Virus record (IMG/VR): IMGVR_UViG_3300036823_000383
Location: 9,434-73,433 of that record
DNA: 64,000 bases
Direction: 5' to 3' (one strand)
From: a virus
Shown: positions 17,011 through 51,374 of the stretch, piece after piece
Layout: the number at the start of each line of letters is the position of its first letter
Position numbering within the stretch: the stretch's first letter is position 1
The notes under the pieces: model-generated
Databases searched by the model: none
The model's input: the letters and a program-made list of their open reading frames with translations, nothing else
Told to the model about the DNA's origin: nothing
Position numbers and translations under genes: made by a program

Positions 17011-18438
17011 TCAGAGACCGCTGACGCGCGCGGGCGCGAGGCTCTTCGCCGGAGTGCCGCCGTTGCCGAGCTGCTTCTGAGAGTTGTCACCCCAGCAGTA
17101 GAAGTGCGCGTTGTTCAGGTCGCACGTCGCGCCGGGGAGCGCGGCCGGCGCCGCGACGAAGAGCGTACCGGACCCGTGTCCTGAGACGGCAACGGGCGTC
17201 GTCGACAGGTGTGGGCTCGTCGGGCTGTTCGAATAGTCGAACCCGTCGCCGAGTTCGCCATCGTCACCTAAGCCCCAGCACGACGCCGCTCCACTCGACG
17301 TGACCGCGCACGTCGTGAATTCGCTGGCGCTCATGTTCTGGACGCCGCTTGACAGACCCGACACCGAGACGGGCACGTTGCTGTCGTGATCGTTCATGCC
17401 GGATGTGTCGATGGTCCCGTTACCAAGCTCGCCGCCCGGGTTGTAACCCCAGCACTTCGCAGCGCCGCTCTGCACCGCACAGCTCCACCCGATCCCGACG
17501 GTTGCCCAGGTCACGCCGCTCGACATGCCGCTGACCGCGACGGCCGTCAGCGACGACGTGTTCGCCCCATTCCCGAGCCCTCCGTAAGAGCCGTCGCCCC
17601 AGCACTTCAGCGCGCCGCTGACGATCGCGCATGAATCCGCGCGACCCGTGGCCACCATCGTGGCGCCGGAGATACCAGATACCGCAACGGGTGCCGTTCG
17701 AGACGTCGTCGTACCGTCCCCGATCTGACCGAAGTAGTTGTCCCCCCAGCACTTGACGGCTCCCGTCGAGAGCGTTGCGCAAGTGGTGAAGTCGCCCGAC
17801 GAGAGCTGCACGACGCCGCTGGTGAGCCCGGAAACGGATTGGCCGACGGTGCGACTGGTGAGAGTGCCGTCGCCGATCTGCCCGTCCGAGTTGTGTCCCC
17901 AGCATACGGCGGCCCCGTTCACGATGGCACACGCATGATAGGCGCCGCACACGACGCTCGTCGCGCCTCCGCTCGCGTTCGTCACCGGCACGGGAACGAG
18001 TGAGTCGAGAGTGCCTCCGTTCCCGAGCTGGCCGGCGGAGCCTTCGCCCCAGCACACGACGCCGCCGGAAGCGATCGCGCAACCGAAGTCACCGCCCTGG
18101 CAAATCTCCGTGTCGCCTACGAAGATCGATTGCGGAGCTGTTTCGACGGTACCGCCCGAGAAGGTGCCGATCGCCTTGAACGTGTGAGCACCGGGAGCGA
18201 CCGTCGGGAATCCTACGCTCGTGTTCCACGGCGAACCGAACGACGTCGACATAAGAACGCCGTCCACGTAGTAGTCGACCTTCGTGGCATCCGCCGACGC
18301 TGTGGCAGCGTACGAGGTGTTACCGCCGTGAAGGACAGCGCTTGCGCTGATCGAGCACGTCCCGGTGCACGCTGCCTGGCTCGGCGTGGCGTAAGCGAGA
18401 GCAATTGCTAACAGTGCGAATAATTTCAATGATTTCAT
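17011..18438 (-). CDS. secreted Ig-like plus RCC1-repeat beta-propeller protein
   Basis: Signal peptide; seven C-WG.N..GQLGNG-type repeats; AAAGGAG RBS. Confidence 0.9.
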   Translation of the reverse strand: MKSLKLFALLAIALAYATPSQAACTGTCSISASAVLHGGNTSYAATASADATKVDYYVDGVLMSTSFGSPWNTSVGFPTVAPGAHTFKAIGTFSGGTVETAPQSIFVGDTEICQGGDFGCAIASGGVVCWGEGSAGQLGNGGTLDSLVPVPVTNASGGATSVVCGAYHACAIVNGAAVCWGHNSDGQIGDGTLTSRTVGQSVSGLTSGVVQLSSGDFTTCATLSTGAVKCWGDNYFGQIGDGTTTSRTAPVAVSGISGATMVATGRADSCAIVSGALKCWGDGSYGGLGNGANTSSLTAVAVSGMSSGVTWATVGIGWSCAVQSGAAKCWGYNPGGELGNGTIDTSGMNDHDSNVPVSVSGLSSGVQNMSASEFTTCAVTSSGAASCWGLGDDGELGDGFDYSNSPTSPHLSTTPVAVSGHGSGTLFVAAPAALPGATCDLNNAHFYCWGDNSQKQLGNGGTPAKSLAPARVSGL

Positions 18439-18488
18439 TTCTTCTCCTTTGACCAATGAGCTGGTCGCTCAGGGCCGTCGGCCGACGG

Positions 18489-21247: not shown

Positions 21248-21577
21248 TCAGTGCGCGCCGCCGTCGCGGACGACGAGCGCAGAGATGTTGTCGGCTGCGG
21301 ACAGCCCGGAGGAGATCGCGGCGTCAGGCCCGTCCTCGAGGAACGGCTCGCACGCGGCTTCGAACACGAGCGTCACGCGCTCGACCGGTAGGCCCTGCGC
21401 GGCCGCGCTCTCCGCGAGCTGGGCGGCGCGCTGACGCGCAAAGCGCTCGCAGCTGTCGGGGGTGCCCCCGTCCCGCGAGACCGGAGCCGGAGGCGGCACC
21501 GGCACCGGGGCAGGCGAGGGCACGACCGTGCACGAGCACACGGTGAGCAGACACGCGAGAATGAGCAGTCGTGCCAA
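21248..21577 (-). CDS. Pro-rich lipoprotein (possible o-spanin)
   Basis: TTG start after GGAGG; LLTVCSC lipobox. Confidence 0.6.
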   Translation of the reverse strand: MARLLILACLLTVCSCTVVPSPAPVPVPPPAPVSRDGGTPDSCERFARQRAAQLAESAAAQGLPVERVTLVFEAACEPFLEDGPDAAISSGLSAADNISALVVRDGGAH

Positions 21578-22256: not shown

Positions 22257-22931
22257 TCAGGCCGACGTTTTCACCAGCTGGTAGGCGCGCGTTCCCGGGC
22301 GGCTCTTCGCATCGATGCGCCACCGCTCGCGGAGCTCGCCGAAGACCTGGTCCACCTCGCCCGTCTTCCGGTCCCGGCGAATCTGGTACCCGCGCGGCCG
22401 CGTCTCGAACGGCTGCTTCACGAGGCCCATGTGATCGTAGGGCGGCGGCGCGCCGACGATGAAGAAGTTGGGGAGTAGGAAGTTCGAGACGAGGATCCCG
22501 TCGATCGGGTACGAGTCGCCTTCGACGGCGTCGACGAGCTCGCGGGCGACGTCGTATCCGTCTGGGCCCGGTACCCACAGCGCCGTGTTCGGGTTCCCGG
22601 CCATCTCGCTGACCTCGTGCGAGAAGCCGACGGACGGCGCCTCGCCGGCCTGCGTCAGCGTCCCGACGAAGACGTACGAGACCGGAACGCCGCGCTCGTC
22701 CTTGTCGTGGTAGGCGCCCGCTCCTGCAACGTCGGAAAGGTCACGCGCCTTCACGATGCGCATTCCTGGCAGAACAAACCGGGGCGACGGCAGGAACTCG
22801 ATGGTCGGAGTGGGCCAGCCCCACGCGGGCGCCACGTGCTCGCGTTGCTGCTTCGCGCAGACCGTCGCGATCTCGAGCAGCTCGCCGCTCGACAGGGACG
22901 TCGACTCGTTAATGAACGCGGCGTCGATCAT
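22257..22931 (-). CDS. putative metallopeptidase-like protein
   Basis: GAYH ... SHEVSE ... ELVDAVE ... VSNFLLPNFF. Confidence 0.6.
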   Translation of the reverse strand: MIDAAFINESTSLSSGELLEIATVCAKQQREHVAPAWGWPTPTIEFLPSPRFVLPGMRIVKARDLSDVAGAGAYHDKDERGVPVSYVFVGTLTQAGEAPSVGFSHEVSEMAGNPNTALWVPGPDGYDVARELVDAVEGDSYPIDGILVSNFLLPNFFIVGAPPPYDHMGLVKQPFETRPRGYQIRRDRKTGEVDQVFGELRERWRIDAKSRPGTRAYQLVKTSA

Positions 22932-23221
22932 GGCTCACACCACGCGTCCGACGAGCACATGAGCTCGCCGGCTTGGCACCGCGGGGTCGCGGCGGGTCCG
23001 GACAGCTGTGCCATGCCCGCCGTGCAGAACCGACCGCAGTCGTACTGGCTTCTCGCCGGACGGGCGCAGAGCGTCGCCGCGCTGGCACACGCTTCCGCGC
23101 ACCGGCCGCCGGCGTCCGCGTGCACGGGCGGTGGCTTCTGACCCGTCCCCGCGCGGTCCTGATGGCATCCCGTCGCGCCCCCGAAGAAGAGCAGGAGCGC
23201 GAGGAGCAGGAGCGCCCTCAC
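22928..23221 (-). CDS. small Cys-rich lipoprotein
   Basis: Hydrophobic N-terminus ending GATGC; multiple Cys; coupled. Confidence 0.7.
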   Translation of the reverse strand: MRALLLLALLLFFGGATGCHQDRAGTGQKPPPVHADAGGRCAEACASAATLCARPARSQYDCGRFCTAGMAQLSGPAATPRCQAGELMCSSDAWCEP

Positions 23222-23868
23222 TGAGCGTCGCCGACGGCCGGCGTCGGGGCGTCCGAACAGTCCTGCGCCCATTCCGTCGCGGCATCCGAGGAGAACTTCG
23301 TCGCTGCCACCGCGAGCGCTGCGAATGCGCCGGCCGTTGACGCGAGCCCGATGCGCCAGCCCTTGTCGGAGACGATGCCGGCAGCGACGCCGGTGCCCCC
23401 CGAGACGATGCCATCGGCCCACGCGGCGCGCGTGAAGAGCTGATGGTCACTGTCGAGCGAATCGCAGTGGTGCTGATCGCGCGGAGGCGCGGCGGTCCCG
23501 AGCATCATGCGAGGCTTTGCCGCCTCCTCGAAGGAGCCCGCGCAGCCGGTGATCGCAACGAGCGCCGCGAGAAGAACGAGCATCGTCACCGCAGCGGACC
23601 GAGGCGGCGCGCTCGCGAGCTTCGCCATCAGCGCGGCGCGCTCGTCCGGACCCATGACTCGAGCGATCTTCGAGAGTGGCGCGACCTTGATTCGCGACAG
23701 CCGCGTGAAGACCCAGGAGATGACGCCGAACGCCATGCCGGCGAGGGTGAGGGCTTGAGCATCCGTCATCCCCAGCGATGGCAGGTACTTCGCTGCCAGT
23801 ATCGCGATCACGCCCGCCAGAAACTTTATCCATCCCGCCGTGTTGACGGGCTCGTCGCCGTTCATCAT
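23218..23868 (-). CDS. multi-pass membrane protein (holin-like N-terminus, internal lipobox)
   Basis: Two N-terminal TM segments, then LVAITGC, then two more hydrophobic segments. Confidence 0.65.
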   Translation of the reverse strand: MMNGDEPVNTAGWIKFLAGVIAILAAKYLPSLGMTDAQALTLAGMAFGVISWVFTRLSRIKVAPLSKIARVMGPDERAALMAKLASAPPRSAAVTMLVLLAALVAITGCAGSFEEAAKPRMMLGTAAPPRDQHHCDSLDSDHQLFTRAAWADGIVSGGTGVAAGIVSDKGWRIGLASTAGAFAALAVAATKFSSDAATEWAQDCSDAPTPAVGDAQ

Positions 23869-23882
23869 GTTGCGTCTCCCTT

Positions 23883-24656
23883 TCAGAGTCCGCGCAGCGC
23901 CGATCGCAACGCGGGGTAGATGTCGTTTCCGAGCTTCGTGTAGCCCGTGGGCGTCGGATGAATCCCGTCGCATAGATCCCCACCGACGAGCGTCGTCGTC
24001 GCCCGGTATAGCTGAATACCTTCCTCGCCGAGGGTGTCCCACACGCCGGTTCTCGTGGTCGTAAGCGACGTGTTGTTCGCCGCCGGCGCAGTGCCGCTGA
24101 AGACTGTGTTGACGACGAAACGCGCCTGAGGCTCACGCGAATGGATCTGCTCGATCAGCGACTGGTAGTTCGCAGCGAACGAGCCGCTGTCCTCGGCGTT
24201 CGTTCCCAGGTTCAACATGATCACCTGCACACCGTGCAGCGGCTTGCCCGTGCCGAGGTAGTTGGTGATCGTATTGGTAGTGAAACCGCTGCCGTTGGTC
24301 GACGGCGCACCGGGCAGCTTGTCGTTGCACGAGTCGCCGTTGATGCCCTCGTGGTGCCGCGTCGGCGCGTACGAAGCCGTCGAGTTGTTCTGCTGCCCCA
24401 GCCACTGAATCGAGGTGTACCCGTCAGCGATCGCGAGCGTATCGAGCGCGGAGCGGTAGCCGTTGTAGACAGTGTCCGTCGTCGTCGATGTGCAGTCGTA
24501 CCCGCGAGTGATCGAATCCCCGGTCATCAGGACCGAGGCGTCAGCACCGAGAGGAGAGGTACCGAGTCTTGCGTCGGCCCCGCAGCATCCAGTCGCTAGT
24601 AGGAGGCCACCGATGAAGGTGTTAGCCCTACGCAGCGACGCCGCGGGGCCGATCAG
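23883..24656 (-). CDS. SGNH/GDSL hydrolase, probable lipoprotein with CTG start
   Basis: GDSIT, HEGING, NLGTN, DGIHP; frame open upstream of ATG 24527 to a CTGA overlap. Confidence 0.8.
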   Translation of the reverse strand: MIGPAASLRRANTFIGGLLLATGCCGADARLGTSPLGADASVLMTGDSITRGYDCTSTTTDTVYNGYRSALDTLAIADGYTSIQWLGQQNNSTASYAPTRHHEGINGDSCNDKLPGAPSTNGSGFTTNTITNYLGTGKPLHGVQVIMLNLGTNAEDSGSFAANYQSLIEQIHSREPQARFVVNTVFSGTAPAANNTSLTTTRTGVWDTLGEEGIQLYRATTTLVGGDLCDGIHPTPTGYTKLGNDIYPALRSALRGL

Positions 24657-26053
24657 AATCTCCCTGCTGGGAAGTCGACCCGCAGCGAGGTGTAGTCGGC
24701 CTTCATCATGTTGGTCGCCGCGGTGCCCGTGTTCTTGAAGACGCCCACTGCCATGCCGAGCAGCGTGCTATTCGGCAGGTTCGTGGTGACCGTCGCCTTC
24801 AGCGCCTTGTCCACGTAGAACGCGACGCTAGATGATCCAGGGTAGGTGACCACCTGCAGCTCGTTGTAGGTCGCAGCAACCAGCGAGATGGTGGTGTCCA
24901 CCGGTGTTCCGACACCTCCCGTGGTGCACCCGGCGAGCCAGTCCGTCGTGTTGACTGCGCTCGTCGTGTCGTAGATGAAGCCACACCCATCAGCGAAGAT
25001 TTTCTGAGACGGAGCGCGTTGCTTCATGAGCCCCGCGTTGATCGCAAACGTGTTCGTGCCGTTCGAAAGAACGGGTGCCGTGATGCGAGTGGTCAGACTG
25101 AAGCCGACGTTGCTAGTGGAGTAGACGATCGACTCGCCGCCGTCCGCGGCGGTATTGGATGCGGTCCACGCATTTGCGATACCGCACATGCCGGTTGCGG
25201 TGGACGTACCGGATGCGCACAGAATCTCGCCTACCGCGGAGGCGGAGTTCGTGCTTTGCGCGGCGACGGTAACACCGGTCCCGCTCGTGAATCGCGCCCA
25301 CCCGGCGGACCCAGGCGCATTCGCGACGGCCGCGTTTTCCGTAAGATCGTCCACGTGCACGATGACTTCGTCGGGACCTGCTTTCGCGTCGGTTCGCAGC
25401 AGGAACACCGGAGACGTGCCGACGGTCACCGACGGACCGAGGTAGCTGTATTCGCCGCCTGCGCGGCGATTCCCAAGCTTCACGCGCACGCGCGCCCCCG
25501 GGAACTCCGCCGCCTGATCGAGATTCGGGTGGCGCGTGACGACGAACGTAGATCCGGCGCCGCCGAGGTTGGTCGCGCAGTACACACCGTTCTCGAACCG
25601 GTTCGTTCTCTGCTGAATCAGAAAGCAGTCGCCCGAGCCGAGCGTGACGCCGTCGATCGGGGGCAGCACCCCGTTTGAGTTTTCCGTCAGCGTCGAGTTG
25701 ACACCGCTGGAGCCGTTTGAATATGTGCTCGCCGGTAGATCTGCGACGGCTGCCGCCTGGACGGCGATGCCTCTGGAGTCGATGTAATTCTTCGTCGCAA
25801 GATCTTGCGGGAGCGTCGGGTCTGCGCCGCTATGGACGGGGTGCCCGTTCAGGTCCATGTCCCCGGTGGTGTGCGAGATGGTGATGTTGCCCGCGTTGTC
25901 GACGACGGCGCCGAACACCGTCTTCTTCAGAACGCAGCCGAGGACGACGTCGCCCTTCGCGTCGAGGCAGTTCGCATTCGGGGGAGGCCCCGACGGGGCG
26001 CATCCGGCCAGCACCAGCAACGCACAGAGCAGCGCAAATAGACGCTTGTTCAT
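24653..26053 (-). CDS. tail-fibre-like protein with lipoprotein signal
   Basis: LVLAGC lipobox; DLATKNYID..IDGVTL..ENGVY fibre module; beta-sandwich-like C-terminus. Confidence 0.75.
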   Translation of the reverse strand: MNKRLFALLCALLVLAGCAPSGPPPNANCLDAKGDVVLGCVLKKTVFGAVVDNAGNITISHTTGDMDLNGHPVHSGADPTLPQDLATKNYIDSRGIAVQAAAVADLPASTYSNGSSGVNSTLTENSNGVLPPIDGVTLGSGDCFLIQQRTNRFENGVYCATNLGGAGSTFVVTRHPNLDQAAEFPGARVRVKLGNRRAGGEYSYLGPSVTVGTSPVFLLRTDAKAGPDEVIVHVDDLTENAAVANAPGSAGWARFTSGTGVTVAAQSTNSASAVGEILCASGTSTATGMCGIANAWTASNTAADGGESIVYSTSNVGFSLTTRITAPVLSNGTNTFAINAGLMKQRAPSQKIFADGCGFIYDTTSAVNTTDWLAGCTTGGVGTPVDTTISLVAATYNELQVVTYPGSSSVAFYVDKALKATVTTNLPNSTLLGMAVGVFKNTGTAATNMMKADYTSLRVDFPAGRF

Positions 26054-26217
26054 GCTCCTACCTCGACCTCATCGTTCGCGTCGTTGGTCTCAACGACGTC
26101 GTTGGTGTTGTCCACGCCGACGATGTCCTTCGTGTTCGTCGGTCCCCCGCCACCGCTCGATGGAAGCGCGTGAGGAGAGAGCAACGAGAGGCATCCGAGG
26201 CCCACGAAGAACGCCAT
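26050..26217 (-). CDS. 55-aa protein sharing its C-terminal motif with the upstream fibre
   Basis: Hand translation MAFFVGLGC...DANDEVEVGA; late motif upstream; ATGA overlap. Confidence 0.7.
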   Translation of the reverse strand: MAFFVGLGCLSLLSPHALPSSGGGGPTNTKDIVGVDNTNDVVETNDANDEVEVGA

Positions 26218-26280: not shown

Positions 26281-28053
26281 TTACGCGCCGACCTTGACGT
26301 CGTCGCTTGCGCTATCGACTTCGATCACGTCGCTGTTCACGCCGATGACGTCGGTGGTGTTGCTGGTCGGGATCGGGAACGTCTGGACTTCGACGCTGTA
26401 GGTGCCGTTGACGTCGCTGCGCGTTGAGGACCCCGTGGTGCGGCACAGGAGAGTCGTCGTTCCGAGCGAGAAAATTGCCCCCGGCATCGACGGAATCCCG
26501 GTGATCGTGGTCGCCGCGCCTCCAGGATCTTGCAGGACTGCGTTTGCGCCGCCCTTCCTGCTGAACCATTGCACGTGCTCGTACAGGTAGTAGTCGGTGC
26601 CGGAATTGGCATACATCCAGAAGCGAACGCGCGTTATCGCGTTGTCGGCTAACGGGACCGTCGCGAGCGTGATCGGGGACAGCGACGCGACGGCGAACGG
26701 ACCGGCAAAAGTCAGCTTGGTGAGCGGCGTCGTGTTGTCGAAGAAGAGATTGATTCCGTTCGCGCCGTCGCAGAGCAAACCAACGAGCGCCGTCAGGATG
26801 TCCTCGACGGTGGCGCCGTTCAGGTGAAACTTCGGAACCGGAGTGCCGCCGTGGAAGGCGTGCTGCACCTCGCCTTCGTTGTCCGGCGTGACGGCGTACG
26901 CGGTGCTACTCGAGCCGTCCGAGTGGAGCGTCCCGAGAGCCAGCGTTCCGTCGCCGTGAATATCGGCGACGCCACCGAGCACCGTGAGCCCGGTGCCGTC
27001 CTTGCCGTAGAGCATCGACGCGGCCGCGATGCCCTGCGTTGCAGGGACCCAGTCGCCGAAGTCGGCGTCCCACACGATCATCTCGTCGGCGTAAGTGCCC
27101 GACCCGATGAGGTCCTTCAGCTTCGGGCGAGGGTGCACGTGCGCGGCATCAGCCGCCTTCCCGCTTGCGCCCGCGGCGGCGCTGGCGGCGAGCGCTTGGA
27201 TGTCGCCGACCAACCCCGCGGTGACGGTGATCGTTCGGTTCGCAGAGAGGTCGCCTCCGCCCGTCGCGAGGCCTGCGGCGCTGACCGTTCGCGTCGTCGG
27301 CGGCGCCCCGACCTGCGTCGCGGTGTAGTCCCCTGTCTGCGCCGTGACGCCGCCGACGCGCCCGAACACGGACGAGACGGGCGAAGAAATGCCGGGCAGG
27401 TGCGAGATGCCGAGGACGCCCGTGACCGCGCTGTCGTCGGCGAGGTTGATGGCGCCGGCCTTGCCGAGCTTCCCGCTTGTGCCGTTGAACAGCACTGGGC
27501 GTCCGTCGACCGAGCTGCTCGGTCCGGAAAAGTCTCCGCCGCCTACTGGCGCGCCGTTGCTCCCGGGGACGCCGGGCCCGCACATGGTGAGATTGCCCGC
27601 GCCATCGACGGTTCCGACGGGGAAGTCGCCAGCTGAATAGGAGCCAACTCGTTCGCAGCGCCCCGTCGTCGGGCCGACGCGGACGAGCCCGTTGCTGTTC
27701 GCGGCAAGCCCAGTGACGGACGCCGGCAGCACGCCGAGCAGGGCGCAGAATCCCGAGGTCCCGCGAAGAGTCGCCTGCAGCAAGACGCCGTAGACGCTGC
27801 CTGCGTTCGAGAGAGACTCGGTGAGCGCGCGCTTCACGGTCGGCGCGGCCGGCGGTACGGGTCCGTTTTGCCCGACGACGACAACGTCACCGAGGGCGCC
27901 GTCCTGCGCGTCGTCGGCGGCGAGGATCACCTGCGTTGCGACCACGCCTCCGAGCAGCGCGATCCGCTCGCGGCGGTCGTACTCGTCGAGCTGCTGTTGC
28001 AGCTTCGCGACGCTCACGTCGCTCACAGCGGCTGCTCCGTTACCTCGAGCCAC
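26281..28053 (-). CDS. tail fibre protein
   Basis: VSSVFGRVGGVTAQTGDY, GLATGGGDLSANRTI, ADAAHVH fibre motifs; position after baseplate. Confidence 0.75.
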   Translation of the reverse strand: MARGNGAAAVSDVSVAKLQQQLDEYDRRERIALLGGVVATQVILAADDAQDGALGDVVVVGQNGPVPPAAPTVKRALTESLSNAGSVYGVLLQATLRGTSGFCALLGVLPASVTGLAANSNGLVRVGPTTGRCERVGSYSAGDFPVGTVDGAGNLTMCGPGVPGSNGAPVGGGDFSGPSSSVDGRPVLFNGTSGKLGKAGAINLADDSAVTGVLGISHLPGISSPVSSVFGRVGGVTAQTGDYTATQVGAPPTTRTVSAAGLATGGGDLSANRTITVTAGLVGDIQALAASAAAGASGKAADAAHVHPRPKLKDLIGSGTYADEMIVWDADFGDWVPATQGIAAASMLYGKDGTGLTVLGGVADIHGDGTLALGTLHSDGSSSTAYAVTPDNEGEVQHAFHGGTPVPKFHLNGATVEDILTALVGLLCDGANGINLFFDNTTPLTKLTFAGPFAVASLSPITLATVPLADNAITRVRFWMYANSGTDYYLYEHVQWFSRKGGANAVLQDPGGAATTITGIPSMPGAIFSLGTTTLLCRTTGSSTRSDVNGTYSVEVQTFPIPTSNTTDVIGVNSDVIEVDSASDDVKVGA

Positions 28054-30425: not shown

Positions 30426-31633
30426 CAGAGCCCCGCGGCATGCGAGCCGAGCAGCCGGCTCCGGTACAGCTGCCCGTTCATGCCGAAGAAGAGGCGCCCC
30501 TTGATCGCGCGAACGCAGAACGACGACAGCGCGGCGACGGTGGGCGAGGACCGGTAGATCCGCGTCGCGAGGATCCACGTCGCGCCGCGATCGATCGAGA
30601 AGTAGATCTGCCCGAGAGGGAAGGACGCGACGAAGACGCCGTAAAGCGCGGTGAGGCACCGAGGGGAGGCCAAGGTGAGAGTGTTTCCAGATGGCCTTGC
30701 CGTGCCTGTCACCCAAACGTCGCCGTCGATCGACGTGGCGATGAAGTTGCCGACGCCGGCCGTCGAGACCGCCAAGAACACGCCATCTCCGAACGTGTGC
30801 GTGTATGCGCCGGCCGTGAATGTCGTCGTGCTAGCGGTCCACGTGACGCCGTCGTCGGAATAGGCGAGCTTCGTCTGCGCTATCCAGCTCGCGACGAGCC
30901 GTCCATTCGATCGCTGCGAAATCTTCAGGCCGGCATTGGACCCGGTGATGGCGGCCGGCGGCGTGCGCTGCGTGGCTACCGGCGTCGCAGTGTTCGTGAG
31001 CGTAGCGATGTACGGGGTCGACGACGTCTTGCCGATCGCTACGAACAGGTCGTGCACCTGGTCATAGAAGATCGCGTCGATGGACGTCGGGCTCCCAGGG
31101 AGCGTGACGGTGGCGCCGGTGATGGCGAGCGACGACGACGTCCCGGATCGGAGATCGGCGGACCTCATCGAGCCGTCCGAGGCACCGAACAACGTGATGA
31201 TGTCGCTCGATGCGCAGCACTGGAAGTTGTGTGACCCGAACCCCGACGTGGTCGGGTCCTGCCACGACGCGCCGCCGTCGGTCGACAGCTTCACCTCACC
31301 AGCGGCAGACGAATCGACGAGCGCCATGAAGCCGTCACCCTGCGAGCAGACGTCGTCCGGCTGGCTTCCGACGGTGGAGTCGGTGGACGCGGGGATGAGA
31401 TCCATCGCAGCGCCGAGCCACTTCGCTCCGAACGTCGAGAAGAAAGCGTCCTCGTTCCGGTCCGAGACGGCGAGCCCGCCTCCTGAGATTCGGATCGGAG
31501 CGATCGGCGAAACCTTGCCACCCGCGTAGCCGTCTACGGCCCGTGATATGTTCAGGTCGATCTGCGTGAAGGTCGCCCCGGTGATCCTCACGTTGTCGCC
31601 GATGCCCGTCGGCCAGACGCGTGCGAAGGTCAT
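30425..31633 (-). CDS. Asp-box (BNR) beta-propeller tail protein
   Basis: STDGGASW, SDDGVTW, SIDGDVW, SIDRGATW. Confidence 0.75.
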   Translation of the reverse strand: MTFARVWPTGIGDNVRITGATFTQIDLNISRAVDGYAGGKVSPIAPIRISGGGLAVSDRNEDAFFSTFGAKWLGAAMDLIPASTDSTVGSQPDDVCSQGDGFMALVDSSAAGEVKLSTDGGASWQDPTTSGFGSHNFQCCASSDIITLFGASDGSMRSADLRSGTSSSLAITGATVTLPGSPTSIDAIFYDQVHDLFVAIGKTSSTPYIATLTNTATPVATQRTPPAAITGSNAGLKISQRSNGRLVASWIAQTKLAYSDDGVTWTASTTTFTAGAYTHTFGDGVFLAVSTAGVGNFIATSIDGDVWVTGTARPSGNTLTLASPRCLTALYGVFVASFPLGQIYFSIDRGATWILATRIYRSSPTVAALSSFCVRAIKGRLFFGMNGQLYRSRLLGSHAAGL

Positions 31634-32352
31634 GAGTCCGTTACTCCTGCGCACCCTGTCAGGGAGCTCGTTGTGAAAAACCCCACCTCGGTGATCACCG
31701 ATCCTTCGGCCCACGCGGGCAGAGCATCGGCCAGGATTTCCTCGCCGCGTCGGATGAGCGAGAGCTCTTTCGAGCCCGGGGGGATCCCCGCTCCGATGTC
31801 GAGGACAGCGACCACGATGTCGCGGTCGCTAAAGTTCGGGTAGTCGGACCAGGTTCGCTCGCCGCTGACGCCGCGCGAGAAAGGGTCGGCGCCGGGCACG
31901 TACGGAGCGAAGGCGCGACCCATGAGCGTCACGCGACTAGTGGACCACGGCGTGTCCAAGACGGAGAAGCGCGCATCGAGCGCGCGCAGCGTGGCGGTGA
32001 GGATCGGTATCTCGGACGACTGCACGTCGACCCACCTGCTCGAAGCGTCCGCTCGGCGCTGGACGTCGGTCTCGTCGACCGACGGCACGATGCCGAGGAT
32101 GTCCTCGTAGGCCGGGAGCGCGTCTTGGGCGAGACTCGGAAAGGCCTGGAGCGCGGCGCGCTCGTCGAACGCGGCCGACGCCGCGAGCCCGATCGACATC
32201 GAGATGAGTCGGAGCGCGTCGATGCTGTCTTCGTCCTCGGAGGTGCCGCCGTCGCCGAGCGCGCTTCGCAGCGCTTTGTAGCTTTTCTCGACCGGCGAGT
32301 CGTCGCCGCCGAGGTCGACCGGCATCATCGACGGCCAACCGAGCCCGCTCAC
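31630..32352 (-). CDS. baseplate protein (Mu gp48/P2 gpI-like)
   Basis: LPAYEDILGI..ETDVQRR ... LPAW; downstream of baseplate J. Confidence 0.7.
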   Translation of the reverse strand: MSGLGWPSMMPVDLGGDDSPVEKSYKALRSALGDGGTSEDEDSIDALRLISMSIGLAASAAFDERAALQAFPSLAQDALPAYEDILGIVPSVDETDVQRRADASSRWVDVQSSEIPILTATLRALDARFSVLDTPWSTSRVTLMGRAFAPYVPGADPFSRGVSGERTWSDYPNFSDRDIVVAVLDIGAGIPPGSKELSLIRRGEEILADALPAWAEGSVITEVGFFTTSSLTGCAGVTDS

Positions 32353-32846
32353 AGGATCACCACGAGCACGGCGCCGTCGACGGCCGCGAACGTGCCTCCG
32401 CCGAACTCCTTCAGGGCGATCGAGATGGTCGACCCCGACACGGATGCTGCGGCGTCGCGCACCGTCGTGCGGTTCACTGGGAAGGCGAGAGCGCACACGA
32501 TCGACGTGGACTGCTGGACGCCGTTCTCGTCGGGGTAGCTGGAAGCGTACTGGAGAGAAAGGGCTCCGACGCCGGTCCGCCCCGGGATTGGCGGTAGATA
32601 CGGCGCGCCGGTCTTGGTGTTCGGGTTCCAGCTCTCGGCGCGCGCGGAGATGACCGGCGTCACGCCGCCGGTCGAGTCGATCAGCGCCCACGCGCGAAAG
32701 CTGGTGAGTCCCAAGCCCGCGAGCTGGAACCTCACGAGGTTCAGCATATCGGCGCCGATCTGCGTCTCGGGGTTCGTGACGGGCTTCTGGTCGCGCAGCT
32801 GCGGTCCAAAGCTGTCGAGGCTCGGGCGTCGAGGAGAACCGCTCAT
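32349..32846 (-). CDS. baseplate-region hypothetical protein
   Basis: Coupled ORF. Confidence 0.65.
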   Translation of the reverse strand: MSGSPRRPSLDSFGPQLRDQKPVTNPETQIGADMLNLVRFQLAGLGLTSFRAWALIDSTGGVTPVISARAESWNPNTKTGAPYLPPIPGRTGVGALSLQYASSYPDENGVQQSTSIVCALAFPVNRTTVRDAAASVSGSTISIALKEFGGGTFAAVDGAVLVVIL

Positions 32847-34420
32847 TGCGCGTAGACTCCGAAGTCGTTGAGGGTCAGCAGCCGAGGGCCTTCCTGCGAG
32901 ATGTCAGGAGGGAGCGTCGGTGTCGTGTGGCTCACGAAGCGCAGGGACACACCCGAGAGCGCGCGCCCGAGCGCGTCGAAGAGGCTCGTACCGATCGACT
33001 CGCCAGCCTCGTAGGGGAACTCGTCCGCGGGCTCGGGCCACCGGTATGCGCGGCCCGCGCGCGGGCTCGTGGCAAGGTCGATCATCTCGCCAGGTCCGAG
33101 CGAATCGAAGTACGACTCGGCGGCTTCGGCGATCGACTCCAGCAACGGCGTGTAGGGGCAGACCACGCTGTTGACCGTGAGCGTTGCCGGGGCGTTGTCG
33201 CTGAGCTGCACGACGTACTCGGTTCCCGACACCAAGGTCACGCTGGCGACGAGCGGGAGCTTTTCGAAGCGGCTCGTTGTCGCGTTCCACACCATCATCG
33301 CCGGGCCGACGCCGGTCGACGGAACGACTGCGCTGTTCACGTGGAAGTGGGTCGCGTCCGGCAGTGAAGTGACTCGGCAGAACGCGTCGACGGACGTGTC
33401 CGTCCCGATCGGTGATGGCCACGGTGTGGCGTCCGCCCATCCACCGGTGGTCTTCGTGCGCATCTTGAGCGCCATCGACATGCTGATCGGGTCGGATACA
33501 GCGGCGTGCAGCAGCACGTATGGGCGCGCCGGGACGACCGGGGACGAGGGGGGCGTCAGGTAGTTCCGCGCCAGCGTCAGGACGGCGTTGGCGGAGTCCA
33601 CGCGGGCAGTCGGCCCTTGGGTGCTGCGTTTCCCGACAATGACGACGCACACGGAGCCGGCGTTGAAGAGACACGGGTAGACGAAGGCCGTCCGGATCGC
33701 CGTCGAGACGCCGCGTGCCCACGCGCGGAACTGCGCGCGGTTCCCGCTCGCCGGCTTCCTGCGGATGCGGTCCAGCAGCCGATCGAGCACGTCCGCGTCA
33801 TTCTCCGCATCGAAGCCACCGGCGAAGTCCGTCGAAGTGGTGCCGGTCGGGCCAGCTCCCAAAGGCACGTTCGCGCCCTTCGACAGCGTCGTGCCGCTCT
33901 CGGGGTTCGTTCCCTTGCCGCCCTTGACGGCGACCATGGTGAGCGTCGCAATGCCGCTCACAGCGCGGACGGTCGAGCTCGCCTGGTAGGTGTTGCCCTG
34001 TGGGTCGGTCGCGGTGAAGACCGCCGGGTCGCCGAGCAGCGTGGACCCGACGAAGATCGACCCAGTCGTAGCAGGCCAGCTCACCTGACCCGCGCCGCTA
34101 GATGCCGGCAGCGGGGTTACGTCCCACTCGGCGCAGTGGAACCCGCGTAACCAAGTCGATGTTGCCGACGAGGGGTTCGTCTGCTGCGCCGTGAAGCGCG
34201 CGCGCTGCTGCCCTGACTGCAGCCCGAGATCGAGCGCGTCGAAACGCAGGTAGTCTCGGCTGCCATCCTGCGTCGCCTGACGGATCTCCTCCTCGGTGAA
34301 GAAGTCCTTCGTGTCGGGATTGACGAGCCGCCTAAGGCCGTTGCGGAAGTTCGCGAGCATCTCGTCGCGGAGTACTCCGCGCGCGAAGGTAACGAAGGCT
34401 GGCTCGCTCGGCGTGGTCAT
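32843..34420 (-). CDS. baseplate J/gp47-like protein
   Basis: GGFDAENDADVLDRLL..PASGNRAQFRAWA..AFVYP..GSV. Confidence 0.9.
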   Translation of the reverse strand: MTTPSEPAFVTFARGVLRDEMLANFRNGLRRLVNPDTKDFFTEEEIRQATQDGSRDYLRFDALDLGLQSGQQRARFTAQQTNPSSATSTWLRGFHCAEWDVTPLPASSGAGQVSWPATTGSIFVGSTLLGDPAVFTATDPQGNTYQASSTVRAVSGIATLTMVAVKGGKGTNPESGTTLSKGANVPLGAGPTGTTSTDFAGGFDAENDADVLDRLLDRIRRKPASGNRAQFRAWARGVSTAIRTAFVYPCLFNAGSVCVVIVGKRSTQGPTARVDSANAVLTLARNYLTPPSSPVVPARPYVLLHAAVSDPISMSMALKMRTKTTGGWADATPWPSPIGTDTSVDAFCRVTSLPDATHFHVNSAVVPSTGVGPAMMVWNATTSRFEKLPLVASVTLVSGTEYVVQLSDNAPATLTVNSVVCPYTPLLESIAEAAESYFDSLGPGEMIDLATSPRAGRAYRWPEPADEFPYEAGESIGTSLFDALGRALSGVSLRFVSHTTPTLPPDISQEGPRLLTLNDFGVYAQ

Positions 34421-34923: not shown

Positions 34924-35793
34924 TCACGGGCAGGCGAGCGGGCACGAATCGTCGGCCGCCAGCTTGACCGCCTCGTAGCGGACCCAGGCCGGATCGGCGA
35001 TCGGCGCGGTCAGCACCGTCACGGCCGTCGAGGGGGCATGGTCTACGGTGGGTCCCGTTACCACGAGGCACGCGCTGCGTTCGCACTTCCCGCTGATGTC
35101 GGTGGAGAACTGCCGCGCCGAGCTCGAGCTCGTGAATCGCACGCACTGCCGGTACCCGACGTTGAAGAGGAGGTCCGGCGTGCTGCCGCCGCAGTTCGCG
35201 AGCGGCGCGCAAACGGACGGCGCCCCATTGACCTCGCGTTGCTGTGGCTGGCTTGGAAGGACAAGCGACTCGTCGTCGGCATACGTGTCCACGACCGTGC
35301 TGGCGCATGACTCGTAGCTGTCGCACTTGAATTGCCCGCTCGCAGGGTATCCGGACGGAGCACTGTCGGCCGTCCACCCGCACGCGCTGTCGCAGTCCTG
35401 GCCGGCGGCGCTCGGTGGCTTGCACGCATCATGGCTCGTCGGCTTCGGTAGGGCGCCGCCCGCACCGCTGTCCTTGGTCGCCTGCCGTCCACCGGCACCA
35501 GCGTCCTCGGCGCCCGAGCCTGCGCCGCTGTCGCCGGCAGGAGCGCCGCCGGCGCCACTATCGGCGAGATCGCCGCCCGCGCCGGGAGGCGGATCATCGG
35601 TGTGCGTCGCGCCGCCGGTACCGACGACATCTGCGCGCGCGCCGCCCGCGGCGTCCGCCAGCTCCATCGCCGCCGCGCCGCCGCTCGCCGTCGCGTTGCC
35701 GGCGTCCTGCTCCGAAGCCGCGGGTGGGCTCCCAGATCCGCAGGCCACGAGGAACCATCCGAGACCGAGAATCGCTACCGCCCCACGAGTCAT
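34924..35793 (-). CDS. Gly-rich/Cys-rich lipoprotein (moron)
   Basis: FLVAC lipobox; DAG/DSG linker; Cys-rich domain. Confidence 0.75.
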   Translation of the reverse strand: MTRGAVAILGLGWFLVACGSGSPPAASEQDAGNATASGGAAAMELADAAGGARADVVGTGGATHTDDPPPGAGGDLADSGAGGAPAGDSGAGSGAEDAGAGGRQATKDSGAGGALPKPTSHDACKPPSAAGQDCDSACGWTADSAPSGYPASGQFKCDSYESCASTVVDTYADDESLVLPSQPQQREVNGAPSVCAPLANCGGSTPDLLFNVGYRQCVRFTSSSSARQFSTDISGKCERSACLVVTGPTVDHAPSTAVTVLTAPIADPAWVRYEAVKLAADDSCPLACP

Positions 35794-39624: not shown

Positions 39625-41694
39625 TCACCGGTTCGAAGGGGTAGGGGTGCTGCCCGGCACGTTCGGCAGACCCGCCACGGGGCCGCGTGAGCCGTTCCCG
39701 CCTGCGCCCCCCGGAGGCTTGATGCCGTTCAACGCCGCTGCAGCCGTGCGAGCGCCGCTGACGAGGTCCCGTAGAACCTTGCTGACGTCGTTCGCTGAGC
39801 GCGCCGTCTTCTTCAGGCCGTCGGCCGCATCTCGTCCGGCGGCGCCGGCGGACTTCGACTCCGGCTCCTGCGGCTTGAGCTGGACGGGCGGTGGCGGCAC
39901 GAGGGAAGGCGGCGCGTTCTTCACCTTGAAGGCCATCTCGCGGTCGTAGTCGGCGCCGCTGACCGCTTTCGACGGACCGGTCATCGCTTCGCCGATCGCA
40001 GCGAAGATCCCGCCTTGCCCCTTCGTCTCGTCGACGAGCTTCTTCAGGTTGTAGATCGTCGCGATCACGCCACCGGCTGCGGCGAGCCCCACCCCGGCAA
40101 CGGCGGCAGTTCCCCCGGCGGCGACGGCAGCGCCGGCGCCCGCGAGCAACCCCCCGCCTCCGGCTGCGGCGGCCGTGCCGGCGCCCGCTGCTGCCACCGG
40201 AGCCGCCATCTGAGCGGCTTCGGCGGCGCCGACGAACCACTCGGGCATCGTCGTAGCGGCGGCCTCTGCAGCTGCCGCACCGCCCGTCGCTGCTGCCTCG
40301 CCGGCAGCTGCGGCCGCCCCACCGCCTTTGAGCGCACCGAGCAGCGCCTTCCCGCCGGCGAGCGCGAGCCCACCCGCGATGACGCCGCCGACGTCGGACG
40401 CGACCTTGCCACCGACGATGGCCGCGCCCGTCGCGACCGGGTGATCGACGGCGACACCGACGAACTCGGCGAGCTTGTCGGCGAGCTTCGGCATCGCCGC
40501 CGAGATCTTGTCCATCGCCGCGAGGACCTCGGGGCGCTCGAACGCCTTCGTGAAGCGGTTGAGCGCCGCGTCGAGGTTCCTCGATGGCTCGTTCAGGCGC
40601 GCCTTCGCCTGCGCCTCGAGCTCCGCCGCGGTGAGCGTTATCTTGCCGGCCTGGTCGAGATAGTGGTGATACGCGTCGAGACCCGCCTGGGTCTTCTGCT
40701 TCACCGTGCCCTGCATCTCGTTGAAGGCCTTCGAGTAGACCTCGCCGAACTGCGAGATGAGCTTCAGCTGGTCGCCGCTGAACGCCTTCGCGAGGATCTC
40801 TTTCTTGCCGCCCGAGTGGCCGAGGATCTTCTCGATCGCGTCCTTGTCGGTGACGCCCTTATGGGCAAGCTTCACGTGGAGCGTCTTCTCGACCTCCTTC
40901 ACCTTGTCGGTCGCGCCGAGCGTGTCGAGGAGCCCGGCGACGGCGCCGATGCTCTTCTTCAGGCTGCCCGTCGCACCGTCGGCGACGTTGAGCATGGCGC
41001 CGATGCGCTCGAAGCCCTTCTCGCCCTGGAGCCCGAGCTGCTTCGCGCTGGCGCCGACGATGGATAGCTTCTCGCCCATCGCCTCGATCGAGATGCCGCC
41101 CTTGTTGCCCATCGCGATCGCCGCGGCCATCGCCTGCGGGAGCTCCTCCTTCGTGATGGCGAACTTCTCGTTCAGCTGACCAGCGACGACGGTGAGCGCC
41201 TGCATGCTCGCGCCCGTCGCGGTCTGCGCTTTGGCCACCTCTTCGGTCGCGGCCTTCGCGTACTCGACGTCGCCGATGTCCTCGTAGAGCCCCTTGAAGC
41301 TCGCGGCGACCGCGGTGTTCGACTGCTTCCAGCGGTCGCCGACGCCCTCGATGTCCTTCTGAATGTCCCGCCAATCCGTCGCCGCGCCCGTGCCAGCCTG
41401 GATCGCGAATGCGAGATCTCGATACGACGAGACGAGCGCGAGCGCGTTCTTCACGCCGCCGCCGAGTGTGAGCGCGCCACCGAGCGTGACGGCGGTCTTC
41501 AGCGTGGACGCGATCTCGGAGCCGAGATTCCGGATCGAGTCGACGCCCGCCTTCGCCCCATCGCTGAGCGCGCGCTTCAGCGCGTTGCCGGATTCCGCGG
41601 ACGTGCGCTTCGTCTCGTCGCCCATCCGACGGAGGCCGGCGACGTAGCTCGAGGACTCGAGCGTCGCCCGTACCGCTGCGTCGCGCGTCGCCAC
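39625..41694 (-). CDS. tape measure protein
   Basis: 689 aa Ala/Gly-rich helical, after chaperone. Confidence 0.85.
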   Translation of the reverse strand: MATRDAAVRATLESSSYVAGLRRMGDETKRTSAESGNALKRALSDGAKAGVDSIRNLGSEIASTLKTAVTLGGALTLGGGVKNALALVSSYRDLAFAIQAGTGAATDWRDIQKDIEGVGDRWKQSNTAVAASFKGLYEDIGDVEYAKAATEEVAKAQTATGASMQALTVVAGQLNEKFAITKEELPQAMAAAIAMGNKGGISIEAMGEKLSIVGASAKQLGLQGEKGFERIGAMLNVADGATGSLKKSIGAVAGLLDTLGATDKVKEVEKTLHVKLAHKGVTDKDAIEKILGHSGGKKEILAKAFSGDQLKLISQFGEVYSKAFNEMQGTVKQKTQAGLDAYHHYLDQAGKITLTAAELEAQAKARLNEPSRNLDAALNRFTKAFERPEVLAAMDKISAAMPKLADKLAEFVGVAVDHPVATGAAIVGGKVASDVGGVIAGGLALAGGKALLGALKGGGAAAAAGEAAATGGAAAAEAAATTMPEWFVGAAEAAQMAAPVAAAGAGTAAAAGGGGLLAGAGAAVAAGGTAAVAGVGLAAAGGVIATIYNLKKLVDETKGQGGIFAAIGEAMTGPSKAVSGADYDREMAFKVKNAPPSLVPPPPVQLKPQEPESKSAGAAGRDAADGLKKTARSANDVSKVLRDLVSGARTAAAALNGIKPPGGAGGNGSRGPVAGLPNVPGSTPTPSNR

Positions 41695-42948: not shown

Positions 42949-44478
42949 TCAGTTGAACCGCTGCCCGACCACGCCGAACTTGGCGAGCGGCTTCACGATC
43001 TTGAAAGGGATGACGAGGTTCACCTGCGTCTCGTCTCCGTCGTCGACGGCGACGATCAGCGAGCCATCGGCAACGGCCGCTTCGAACGCCTGGAGCTGCA
43101 CGACGCCCTTCTTCACCCAGACCTGGCGGATCCGACTGACGACCCACGCGCGGACGTCGCGCTCCTCGATGACGCCCTCGATGTCCGGCGGGTCGCCGTC
43201 CGGAGGAACGTCCCGCATGATCTTCGCCCGCGGGAAGACGAGCGGCAGGTTGTCACGGATGTCGCGAACGACGATGAATGCGCCGTCGACGTTCTGCACG
43301 TCCAGGCACCGACGGTCCGCGCCGCCAGAGGCGTCGAGGCTGTACGTCGTGATGGGACGAATCAGGACGGGGTCACCGCTGACGTTGTATGCGACGAGGG
43401 ATACGCCGTTGCCGAGCGCGTCCTCGCTCGTCGCGAGCACCGGGTTGTCCGTGATCGGGTCGATGGAGCCGTAGATGCCGTCGAGCACCTCGCCGATCCG
43501 ATTGCCCGCCGGATCGATCGACACGACCGCGAGCCGAGCGCCCGCCTCGCGCCCGGAGATCTCGCAGGGGAGCGAGAGGGCGTTCGGCACGTCGACATCT
43601 TCGAACAGCGGTGAATTGAGGCCGATGGCCCCGACCTTCGTAGCGCTGAGCGCTCCGGTGCTCGCGATGATGCATTGCTGCAGCTTCGCGTTGAGCCCGC
43701 TCCCCACGTTGCCCATGATCGTCCGGATGCGCTTCGCATTCGCGGTTCCCGACGCGGACTGCGCGTCGACGTTGCTGAGGCACGGGACGATGTAGTGGTA
43801 TTCCTTGCCGCCCGCGGCCGTCGCGATCGCCGTGTAGTCCGGGTCGCTGCTGCCGCCGGACAAAGCAGTGAGGGTCGCAGCGCCTGCAACGGCTTCCGTG
43901 CCGTTCTGCGCGGCGTTCAGCTTCACACGCACCTTGCAGTCGTTCCCGTTGTTGCCGGTGACCTTGAAGGTCAGCGTGGTGACGCCAGTGCCGCCCGACG
44001 ATGCCGTGAGCGGCAGGTCCGTCGTTTTCGAGCTGATGGTCGCGATCGCGTTCGCCTTGAACGTGTCCGCGGATTGTCCGGCGAGCCACGGCACGTCGAT
44101 CGAGCGACCGGCGATGAGCCAGTTCACGCTCTGGTCGGCGACGGGAGATCCCGACGCGGTGATCGAGAGAGTGGCGCTGCCCGTTCCGGCGGTCGGCGCG
44201 CCGAAGTCGACGACGGCCGTTGGGTACTTCCGGTAGATCTGTTTCGCCGCAAGATGACCCACGGAGCCGGAGCCGTACGCGAGCGACGCCGTTGCCTCGC
44301 CGCCACCGGCGCGGATCTCGGTGTCGACCGTGAGGTTGCCGGAGCTCGCCTTCGGCGCGAGCAAGAGCACACGGAGCGGCGCGGAGCCGGGGCCCGCTGC
44401 GCCGGCGAGAAGATCGACGGAGACGTAGACGCCGGGCGTGAGGGTCGCCGGGCTGACTGCCTTCGGAATGGTCATCAT
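42949..44478 (-). CDS. contractile tail sheath protein
   Basis: TPGVYV, LAYGSGS, LGNGVSLV, IRPITTY (Mu gpL-like). Confidence 0.9.
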   Translation of the reverse strand: MMTIPKAVSPATLTPGVYVSVDLLAGAAGPGSAPLRVLLLAPKASSGNLTVDTEIRAGGGEATASLAYGSGSVGHLAAKQIYRKYPTAVVDFGAPTAGTGSATLSITASGSPVADQSVNWLIAGRSIDVPWLAGQSADTFKANAIATISSKTTDLPLTASSGGTGVTTLTFKVTGNNGNDCKVRVKLNAAQNGTEAVAGAATLTALSGGSSDPDYTAIATAAGGKEYHYIVPCLSNVDAQSASGTANAKRIRTIMGNVGSGLNAKLQQCIIASTGALSATKVGAIGLNSPLFEDVDVPNALSLPCEISGREAGARLAVVSIDPAGNRIGEVLDGIYGSIDPITDNPVLATSEDALGNGVSLVAYNVSGDPVLIRPITTYSLDASGGADRRCLDVQNVDGAFIVVRDIRDNLPLVFPRAKIMRDVPPDGDPPDIEGVIEERDVRAWVVSRIRQVWVKKGVVQLQAFEAAVADGSLIVAVDDGDETQVNLVIPFKIVKPLAKFGVVGQRFN

Positions 44479-49047: not shown

Positions 49048-49075
49048 GATTGGCTCCTGTACTTCCTGCTCTGGG

Positions 49076-49465
49076 TCAGACCGAGGTGGTGATGCCGACT
49101 CCGAGGGTGACCTCGAAGAGATCGCTGAGGACGGCCGAGCGCTCGGCCATGCCGATGACGCTGACCTTGTCCGCGGTGGCCGCGACGATCTTGCCCGTCG
49201 CGTCCGGGCCGACGCGCTGGCCACGCGTGATGGTGCCGCCCGCGAGGGCGATGAACGTTCCGACCACGCCGATGTCGCCGTAGTCGTTGACGGCGATGTC
49301 GGAGCGCGCGATGCCGTAGACGAGGTCGGTCGTTGCCGCCGTCGGCACGACGCAGTCGTCGGTGGCCGTGTCGAGCTTGACCGGCGTCCCTTTCGGGATG
49401 ATGGAACCCGAAGAGTTCTTCTTGCTCTTCGAGAGAATGGGCAGTTCGCGGGGCTGAAAGGACAT
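49076..49465 (-). CDS. capsid cement/decoration protein (DUF2190-like)
   Basis: AGGTITRGQRVGPDATGK..IGMA motif. Confidence 0.75.
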   Translation of the reverse strand: MSFQPRELPILSKSKKNSSGSIIPKGTPVKLDTATDDCVVPTAATTDLVYGIARSDIAVNDYGDIGVVGTFIALAGGTITRGQRVGPDATGKIVAATADKVSVIGMAERSAVLSDLFEVTLGVGITTSV

Positions 49466-51372: not shown

Positions 51373-51374
51373 GT

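Follow-up and report, generated by a model that had tools for sequence, protein, structure and literature searches.

Does the last fibre-type gene of a prophage encode a part of the virion, or a protein that leaves the cytoplasm for the envelope of the host cell? The question is raised by P0001, a 466-aa open reading frame (ORF) whose product carries a lipoprotein signal in front of a body of phage tail-fibre type, and which closes the series of fibre-type genes in a soil-bacterial prophage, a complete one of the Mu-like myovirus kind. It lies in a 64,000-nt stretch of DNA (IMG/VR record IMGVR_UViG_3300036823_000383, positions 9,434 to 73,433; referred to as the window). An initial annotation of this DNA had offered two explanations for the combination, namely that a receptor-binding module is exported to the cell envelope, or that fibres are added to virions after lysis. 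Our analysis points to the first of these: judging from its sequence P0001 is probably exported, and the fuller reading, in which a fibre tip has become a trimeric lectin that is held by lipid anchors and acts at the envelope, stands in our view at an even balance.

The ORF itself is real, and lies on the minus strand, which had been left unstated (Table 1). Its G+C content at third codon positions (GC3) of 0.80 is close to the 0.83–0.93 of the adjoining genes, indicating that it is coding, and because only five in-frame codons separate the upstream stop from the ATG (open frame of 471 aa), a longer N-terminus is impossible. The ATG is preceded by GAGGTAGGAGC, with GAGG at –11 to –8 and AGGAG at –6 to –2. 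The N-terminus begins with MNKRLFALLCALLVLAG followed by C, and reads MNKRLFALLCALLVLAGC as had been quoted before. Its n-region MNKR, h-region LFALLCALLVLA and lipobox LAGC (Cys18) fit the Sec/signal peptidase II (SPII) lipobox pattern of a charged n-region, an uncharged h-region and [LVI][ASTVI][GAS]C with the Cys at 15–35. They likewise fit the lipoprotein rule of PROSITE PS51257, which we take to be K or R in residues 1–7, an uncharged stretch and [AGS]-C with the Cys at 15–35. The window has 254 six-frame ORFs of 100 aa or more, with 1642 candidate starts between them. Only 15 of these starts fitted the latter rule, most of them in frames with coding-type GC3, indicating that in this DNA of 68% G+C the match of P0001 is not an artefact of composition. 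The clear lipobox of the initial annotation thereby proved canonical and backed by the rule scan, and the body motifs that it had quoted were recovered as well (LATKNYIDS at residues 85–93 and PIDGVTLGSGDCFLIQQRTNRFENGVYC at residues 132–159).

An AlphaFold2 model of P0001, built with 24 aligned relatives, reached a predicted local distance difference test (pLDDT) score of 77, with residues 1–90 poorly and residues 90–466 well defined, and with values of about 90 over residues 310–460. In a Foldseek search of the Protein Data Bank (PDB), its C-terminal domain matched the lectin domain of a Vibrio sialidase (2w68, E = 8e-8) and SO2946 (2a5z, E = 1.5e-7, template modelling (TM) score by target 0.62), followed by legume lectins and glucanases. 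The best BFVD match of this domain was A0A6J5NXA2 (TM by target 0.85), and the best matches there were proteins of uncultured phages, several of them named SO2946-like C-terminal, Mtd_N, collagen repeat or lambda Stf repeat. A protein atlas added an SO2946-like_C cluster with a TM of 0.83. As modelled, residues ~225–466 are a ConA-like (SO2946-like) two-sheet jelly roll, which P0001 has in common with the SO2946-like C-terminal domain (PF22237; 2A5Z) and with ConA-like lectins by fold only.

The mid domain in front of this lectin domain ties P0001 to phage tail fibres. A tblastn search against 50,697 phage records returned 11 matching records, all over residues ~42–228 only, and nine of the 11 matched genes were annotated as tail fibre. 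Residues 41–218 moreover aligned in sequence with residues 204–382 of chain 'orf22' in PDB entry 9EFK (E = 1.4e-14, or 4.4e-20 with the A2 family profile), a chain of 658 aa. The entry, a cryo-EM structure, is described as the portal-tail complex of Legionella phage LME-1, with hexameric trimers of tail fibre proteins and a distal fibre density that was left unmodelled (PMC12407071). Because 'orf22' is present in 18 copies, we infer that it is the LME-1 tail fibre. What P0001 shares with it is the neck and mid domain only (the aligned residues 41–218), and P0001 differs from this and other phage fibres by having a lipoprotein signal in place of the docking N-terminus. As an aside, the unmodelled distal density of the LME-1 fibre may include the mid-domain part.

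Folded alone, residues 60–230 gave a pLDDT of 88, and no clear solved fold emerged for the mid domain from Foldseek against the PDB (best E 0.21) or from the wide VIA search (best Z 4.6, no chain with Z of at least 5). Neither Pfam hmmscan (E up to 0.1) nor NCBIfam yielded a family for P0001. PHROGs returned phrog_2647 (E = 1.4e-10 over residues 49–276), whose label "head decoration" is at odds with the remaining evidence.

A three-copy model of residues 41–230 scored 0.58, versus 0.01 for the best of three controls. When the tool was calibrated, the mark used had been reached by 20 of 30 solved pairs and one of 23 solved single chains, figures that apply to the present case only approximately. 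Three runs shared at least 80% of their contacts with a partner pLDDT of at least 78, and placed the interface at residues 59–94 (the GDMDLNGHPV...LATKNYID neck). The trimer modelling that the initial annotation had suggested supports a predicted homotrimer formed by the neck and, together with the annotated phage fibres and the LME-1 fibre, upholds the claim that the body is of tail-fibre type. P0001 has no virion-docking N-terminal part, and the signal peptide, tether and Cys loop stand there instead. Since this docking part is absent, P0001 is not to be filed as a virion tail fibre and is best regarded as a lipoprotein variant of a fibre-tip family. The proposal that fibres join virions after lysis gained no support from any of the results obtained here and was abandoned; a lipid-anchored trimer such as the one predicted has no docking part.

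A plausible route to the envelope can be outlined. After Sec-dependent passage through the inner membrane, P0001 would be lipidated and cleaved ahead of Cys18 by Lgt and LspA, and with Ala at +2 its transport to the outer membrane would most likely fall to the Lol system. In the host genome (8.8 Mb in 154 contigs, 100% complete), matches above the Pfam cut-off identify genes for LspA (PF01252, n = 1), Lgt (PF01790, n = 3), LolA (PF03548, n = 1) and Omp85 (PF01103, n = 8), which makes the host a diderm with a full lipoprotein pathway. At the outer membrane, P0001 would be a homotrimer with three lipid anchors and a short Pro-rich tether with Cys loop, in which the fibre-type neck would hold the trimer together and be followed, in each of the three chains, by a mid domain and a ConA-like lectin head. 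We infer an outer-membrane and surface location as well as glycan binding, in that P0001 would most likely bind a surface glycan of the envelope, either as a receptor blocker like the phage proteins Cor and Llp or as a surface lectin. As a receptor blocker it would exclude further phage or keep progeny off cell debris. Of the possible roles we favour receptor masking or exclusion, tentatively and at clearly less than even confidence.

Whether such signals recur among relatives was read from a phmmer search against 1.84 billion representative proteins, which gave 5368 matches to P0001 with E ≤ 0.001; of these, 1293 had E ≤ 1e-10 and 52 had E ≤ 1e-30. The mid domain is very common, accounting for these 5368 matches and occurring in up to eight stretches within fibre proteins of 2400–3600 aa. 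The signal counts rest on the 149 relatives listed, 57 of which cover both the mid and lectin domains (referred to as full-length), while the other 92 cover the mid domain only and often carry it several times in very long fibre proteins. Hydrophobic N-termini, defined by a rule of our own (a Kyte-Doolittle mean of at least 2.0 over 12 residues starting within the first 31), were present in 20 of the 57 full-length relatives versus 5 of the 92 others, so that about one third of the full-length family, among the relatives listed, carries hydrophobic or lipobox-like signals. Six of the 20 are lipobox-like (P0008, P0018, P0027, P0031, P0075 and P0087), P0108 being doubtful; these sequences come from Logan contigs. 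Four relatives of 660–680 aa (P0015, P0035, P0037 and P0154) start with a transmembrane-like helix followed by a long, coiled-coil-looking stretch before the fibre body, and form a subgroup with a different anchoring of the same tip.

In a tree built without the N-termini, from the body sequences of 58 rows (P0108 being scored as lacking a signal), the signal label of the 20 signal-bearing rows required 13 changes, at least six of which are forced by the starred branches alone. Shuffled labels required 16.9 changes on average, and 14 of 500 shuffles needed as few as 13. This patchy distribution means that signals were gained or lost many times in the family. The leader can also be followed separately from the body. 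Between P0001 and P0036, residues 47–82 are identical at 26 of 36 positions (72%), versus 40 of 125 in the mid domain and 61 of 222 in the lectin domain (~30%). Over residues 19–46 the identity is 8 of 28, and the Cys-loop motif C.D..GD...GC is kept. P0006, the relative nearest to P0001 in the body (lectin domain identical at 115 of 240 positions), starts in the manner of a fibre and is identical in only 6 of 36 positions of the 47–82 stretch. Given an identity to P0036 of 72% just after the signal and of only ~30% in the body, the leader (signal, Cys loop and neck) behaves, as far as these alignments tell, as a portable module. By origin, P0001 may be a tail-fibre tip whose virion-docking N-terminus gave way to this module.

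Several observations weigh against an exported, envelope-acting P0001. The initial annotation had named signal conservation in homologues as a check, and here the result is divided: the signal recurs in the 20 relatives just described, six of them lipobox-like, and 37 of the 57 full-length relatives lack it. Among the latter is the relative at L004, a metagenome contig with a similarly ordered Mu-like tail module that ends in a signal-less relative of 413 aa with a fibre-like N-terminus; in tblastn, only P0001 and one other protein matched at this locus. Judging by these kin, the body of P0001 belongs by origin to the virion. Relatives with and without a signal do not differ in the number of Cys in their bodies (median of 3 in each group, p = 0.65). 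Translation from an in-frame GTG, at codon 46, could yield a signal-less cytoplasmic form. If P0001 masked the receptor of its own phage, it would lack a detectable twin on the virion, since its body has one match in the host genome and no second copy, and no virion fibre of this phage has the same head, which counts against a simple decoy-copy model. PADLOC assigned no family to any of the 10 proteins submitted. As a whole, the claim that a receptor-binding module is exported to the envelope keeps its lipoprotein signal, fibre-type body and lectin fold, and is weakened by the signal-less relatives.

The L004 relative was found with A5, a smaller alignment of relatives of P0001 used for contig scans. 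Scans of viral contigs with P0001, P0036, P0031 and P0075 as single proteins had found no relative, and A5 found 58 loci in viral contigs and one in genome contigs, all covering only the N-terminal third (query residue up to 229). Three of 78 loci in metagenome contigs reached further, with L003 and L004 covering nearly the whole body and L005 running to the contig end. The relative at L005 has a hydrophobic, anchor-like N-terminus and lies 3′ of a short fibre-like gene.

These points bear most directly on the alternative that P0001 is a distal tail fibre or receptor-binding protein of the virion, made from the GTG46 start or with a hydrophobic N-terminus that goes unused, and joining the virion in the cytoplasm. 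Its position at the end of the row of tail-fibre genes speaks for this, and at the same place in L004 the signal-less relative looks like the only fibre; the majority of full-length relatives are without signal, the mid domain has homologues in genuine virion fibres, and the shortest relatives, with 372–424 aa, come close in length to what translation from codon 46 would give. However, the ATG has the better ribosome-binding site, GTG46 being preceded by AAGAAGA only, and the conservation of residues 19–46 with their Cys loop in P0036 would be pointless in an untranslated leader. Moreover, P0001 has no docking part, the docking parts of 17 signal-less relatives had no significant match in the window, and there is another fibre-like gene (590 aa) just upstream. 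We regard a virion fibre as unlikely.

The direction in which an anchored P0001 would face raises a further alternative. Outer-membrane lipoproteins of most diderms face the periplasm, and with this default topology P0001 might bind peptidoglycan or glycan intermediates, intercept an incoming tail tip in the manner of Ltp-type proteins, or assist lysis. Further lipoprotein candidates downstream of P0001 would suit such a role, one of them being Pro-rich and o-spanin-looking, and the Ltp lipoprotein of phage TP-J34 is described as an exclusion factor (PMC3952083). Yet a trimeric fibre-tip lectin would be an odd periplasmic tool, and neither spanin nor Ltp homology was found in Pfam, PHROGs or NCBIfam; this explanation seems to us quite improbable.

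The surroundings of P0001 are those of a myovirus late region on the minus strand, which spans the structural genes of the window (Table 1) and also encodes DNA_circ_N and GpP-like hub proteins in its tail module. On the 3′ side of the gp48-like gene lie five ORFs without a family, the last being the 590-aa fibre-like protein, and then P0001, so that its reported position directly downstream of fibre-type genes stands, in a tail module that includes Baseplate_J, the gp48-like gene and the 590-aa fibre-like gene.

Table 1. Positions, in the window, of P0001, its parts and other features
Feature	Position	Strand	Basis or remark
P0001, whole gene (466 aa plus stop), lipoprotein with fibre-tip body	24653-26053	minus	ORF list, translation, GC3 0.80, single copy in the 8.8-Mb genome
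Shine-Dalgarno-like GAGGTAGGAG just 5′ of the P0001 ATG	26055-26064	minus	read from the sequence
Signal peptide, residues 1-17: n-region MNKR, h-region LFALLCALLVLA (12 residues), lipobox LAGC, cut before C	26003-26053	minus	translation and rule scan
Cys18, predicted lipidated first mature residue, with Ala at +2	26000-26002	minus	translation; host lipoprotein genes
Pro-rich tether (APSGPPPNAN) and C29...C40 loop, residues 19-46; Cys loop also in P0036; GTG start at codon 46	25916-25999	minus	pLDDT <50
Fibre neck (AVVDNAGNITISHTTGDMDLNGHPV...LATKNYIDS), residues 47-95, predicted trimer interface	25769-25915	minus	trimer model; 26/36 identical to P0036 over residues 47-82
Beta-rich mid domain common to phage tail fibres, residues 96-224	25382-25768	minus	tblastn, PDB sequence match, pLDDT 88
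ConA-like/SO2946-like lectin jelly roll (predicted), residues 225-466	24656-25381	minus	Foldseek PDB, BFVD, protein atlas
55-aa ORF, its TGA overlapping the P0001 ATG (ATGA)	26050-26217	minus	GC3 0.77
590-aa fibre-like protein directly upstream	26281-28053	minus	GC3 0.84; repeat motifs by eye and gene position
SGNH/GDSL hydrolase directly downstream, without signal peptide	23883-24527	minus	PF13472 3.5e-8, PF00657 1.3e-5
Mu gp48-like gene	31630-32691	minus	
Baseplate_J	32843-34420	minus	
Tape measure	39625-41694	minus	
Sheath	42949-44478	minus	
Major head protein	47956-49224	minus	
Protease	49519-51435	minus	
Portal fused to Mu-F-like part, 1008-aa ORF	51916-54942	minus	portal phrog_113 and minor head protein/DNA pilot part phrog_220 in one frame
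Large terminase	58835-60652	minus	
289-aa lipobox ORF	34924-35793	minus	lipobox MTRGAVAILGLGWFLVAC
Small lipoprotein candidate	21248-21577	minus	
Small lipoprotein candidate	22928-23221	minus	
Small lipoprotein candidate	23218-23628	minus	
481-aa protein with signal peptide	17011-18456	minus	Big_7, RCC1 repeats
815-aa SbcC/AAA_23-like ATPase	406-2853	plus	

The last 29 aa of the 55-aa ORF are identical to the C-terminus of the 590-aa fibre at 14 of 29 positions (E = 1e-6 in a single comparison). This small ORF is, from its sequence, probably a relic of the 3′ end of a second fibre, left by cassette recombination and arriving together with P0001. Because of the ATGA overlap with an ORF that resembles a fibre C-terminus, P0001 itself was probably acquired within a cassette of fibre plus lipoprotein, its translation being coupled to that of a late fibre gene. 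The search for promoter-like sites came up empty, versus 0.4 expected from shuffling, and none of the seven terminator-like sites (3.2 expected) lay in the two gaps flanking P0001.

This setting matters for the alternative that P0001 serves the host, as a lysogenic-conversion surface lectin or adhesin for attachment to polysaccharide, prey or kin and without a part in phage exclusion. Its lectin-fold head would fit such a function by analogy with the fibres called mosaic adhesive trimers (MATs) of Bdellovibrio bacteriovorus, all 21 of which are described as phage-fibre-like with a signal peptide (PMC10769870), and prophage-encoded surface lipoprotein adhesins are known from the Erp and Rev proteins of Borrelia cp32 (PMC10016077). 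The sole genome match to the mid domain is a metagenome-assembled genome of the Polyangiaceae, which hints at, and does not show, a myxobacterial setting. However, P0001 sits inside a late tail operon, with no promoter-like site and no terminator-like site in the flanking gaps, and the ATGA overlap with the putative fibre-end relic suggests co-translation with late genes. A purely host-serving adhesin is in our estimate rather unlikely, at most slightly less so than a virion fibre. Among 400 further genomes sampled from the host phylum, none gave a match to P0001 with E ≤ 1e-10, and the sequencing runs listed for the stretch were two, both of soil-metagenome DNA (one possibly the source), with no RNA run among them.

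As for the ligand of an exported P0001, its lectin head makes a glycan more likely than a porin. The adjoining SGNH/GDSL hydrolase may serve as a glycan O-acetyl esterase with a link to the chemistry of the receptor, and the two proteins together would point to a glycan, not a porin.

Among known phage proteins, the closest functional parallel is found in Cor and Llp, which are small porin-binding proteins. P0001 differs from them in its mature length of 448 aa and in having fibre modules and a lectin head. It resembles them in being a phage lipoprotein at the receptor-binding-protein locus, directly downstream of the 590-aa fibre-like gene. Cor (of T1, phi80 and N15) and Llp (of T5) are described in PMC11990801 as outer-membrane lipoproteins, encoded at the receptor-binding-protein locus, that block the own receptor and so stop superinfection and adsorption to the debris of lysed cells. 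Pfam, PHROGs (beyond the fibre and 'head decoration' types) and NCBIfam gave no Cor/Llp-type family for P0001, which places it outside the Cor and Llp families, a separation made by family assignment and without direct sequence comparison.

The MATs of B. bacteriovorus share with P0001 the tail-fibre type, the signal peptide, the swappable tips and, as predicted for P0001, the trimeric state and the display on the cell, as far as described in PMC10769870. According to that source there are 21 per genome, encoded in the chromosome of a predator, with a signal peptide, a conserved beta-rich N-terminal domain of ~130 aa and long beta-helical shafts. P0001 differs in being a single prophage gene with a lipobox and a shaftless product of 466 aa, a comparison made by description only. 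Other prophage lipoproteins include Ltp of the Streptococcus thermophilus (S. thermophilus) phage TP-J34, described as acting in exclusion at the cell surface (PMC3952083), and Erp and Rev of Borrelia cp32, described as surface lipoproteins and adhesins (PMC10016077). These differ from P0001 in having unrelated folds and other hosts, and none is fibre-tip-derived as far as described. Full-text literature searches for a fibre-like lipoprotein returned only the spanin, Cor/Llp, Ltp and Erp cases, and the architecture of P0001 was undescribed there.

P0001 is not the only lipoprotein candidate of the window. A 289-aa ORF with a canonical lipobox (MTRGAVAILGLGWFLVAC) lies amid the baseplate genes, without a Pfam, PHROG or PADLOC family, and represents a second lipoprotein inside the tail module. 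Downstream of P0001 follow three small lipoprotein candidates, of which one is Pro-rich after the Cys and o-spanin-looking, one is Cys-rich, and the third begins within a longer ORF for a membrane protein. A 481-aa protein encoded at the far end of the late region combines a signal peptide with a Big_7 domain and RCC1 repeats (a DNA periodicity of 150 nt in five copies). On the plus strand, the nearest atlas clusters of the 815-aa SbcC/AAA_23-like ATPase are mostly viral; judged by sequence, the left arm of the window may also be prophage.

Phage lipoproteins encoded next to receptor-binding genes are known as small receptor blockers, and here the predicted lipoprotein is itself a fibre tip, modelled as a trimer and bearing a lectin head. 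Export signals are present on some copies of this body type and absent from others, and the body tree requires six switches or more. A broader proposal is that phages repeatedly convert a receptor-binding fibre tip into an envelope protein by exchanging its virion-docking N-terminus for a portable module of lipoprotein or Sec signal, Cys loop and neck, the exported trimer occupying the surface glycan recognised by such fibres for exclusion or progeny protection, so that the blocker would be a copy of the receptor-binding protein, and that this is widespread in soil and freshwater phages; we put it forward as a speculative one that is, in this breadth, doubtful. For annotation, automatic pipelines would label such genes "tail fibre", and host-range determinants would be mis-assigned. 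If the exported form binds the receptor glycan, it would give phages an uncomplicated, evolvable means of excluding superinfecting phage or of keeping their progeny away from cell debris, and would form a link between phage fibres and cell-surface fibre adhesins such as the Bdellovibrio MATs.

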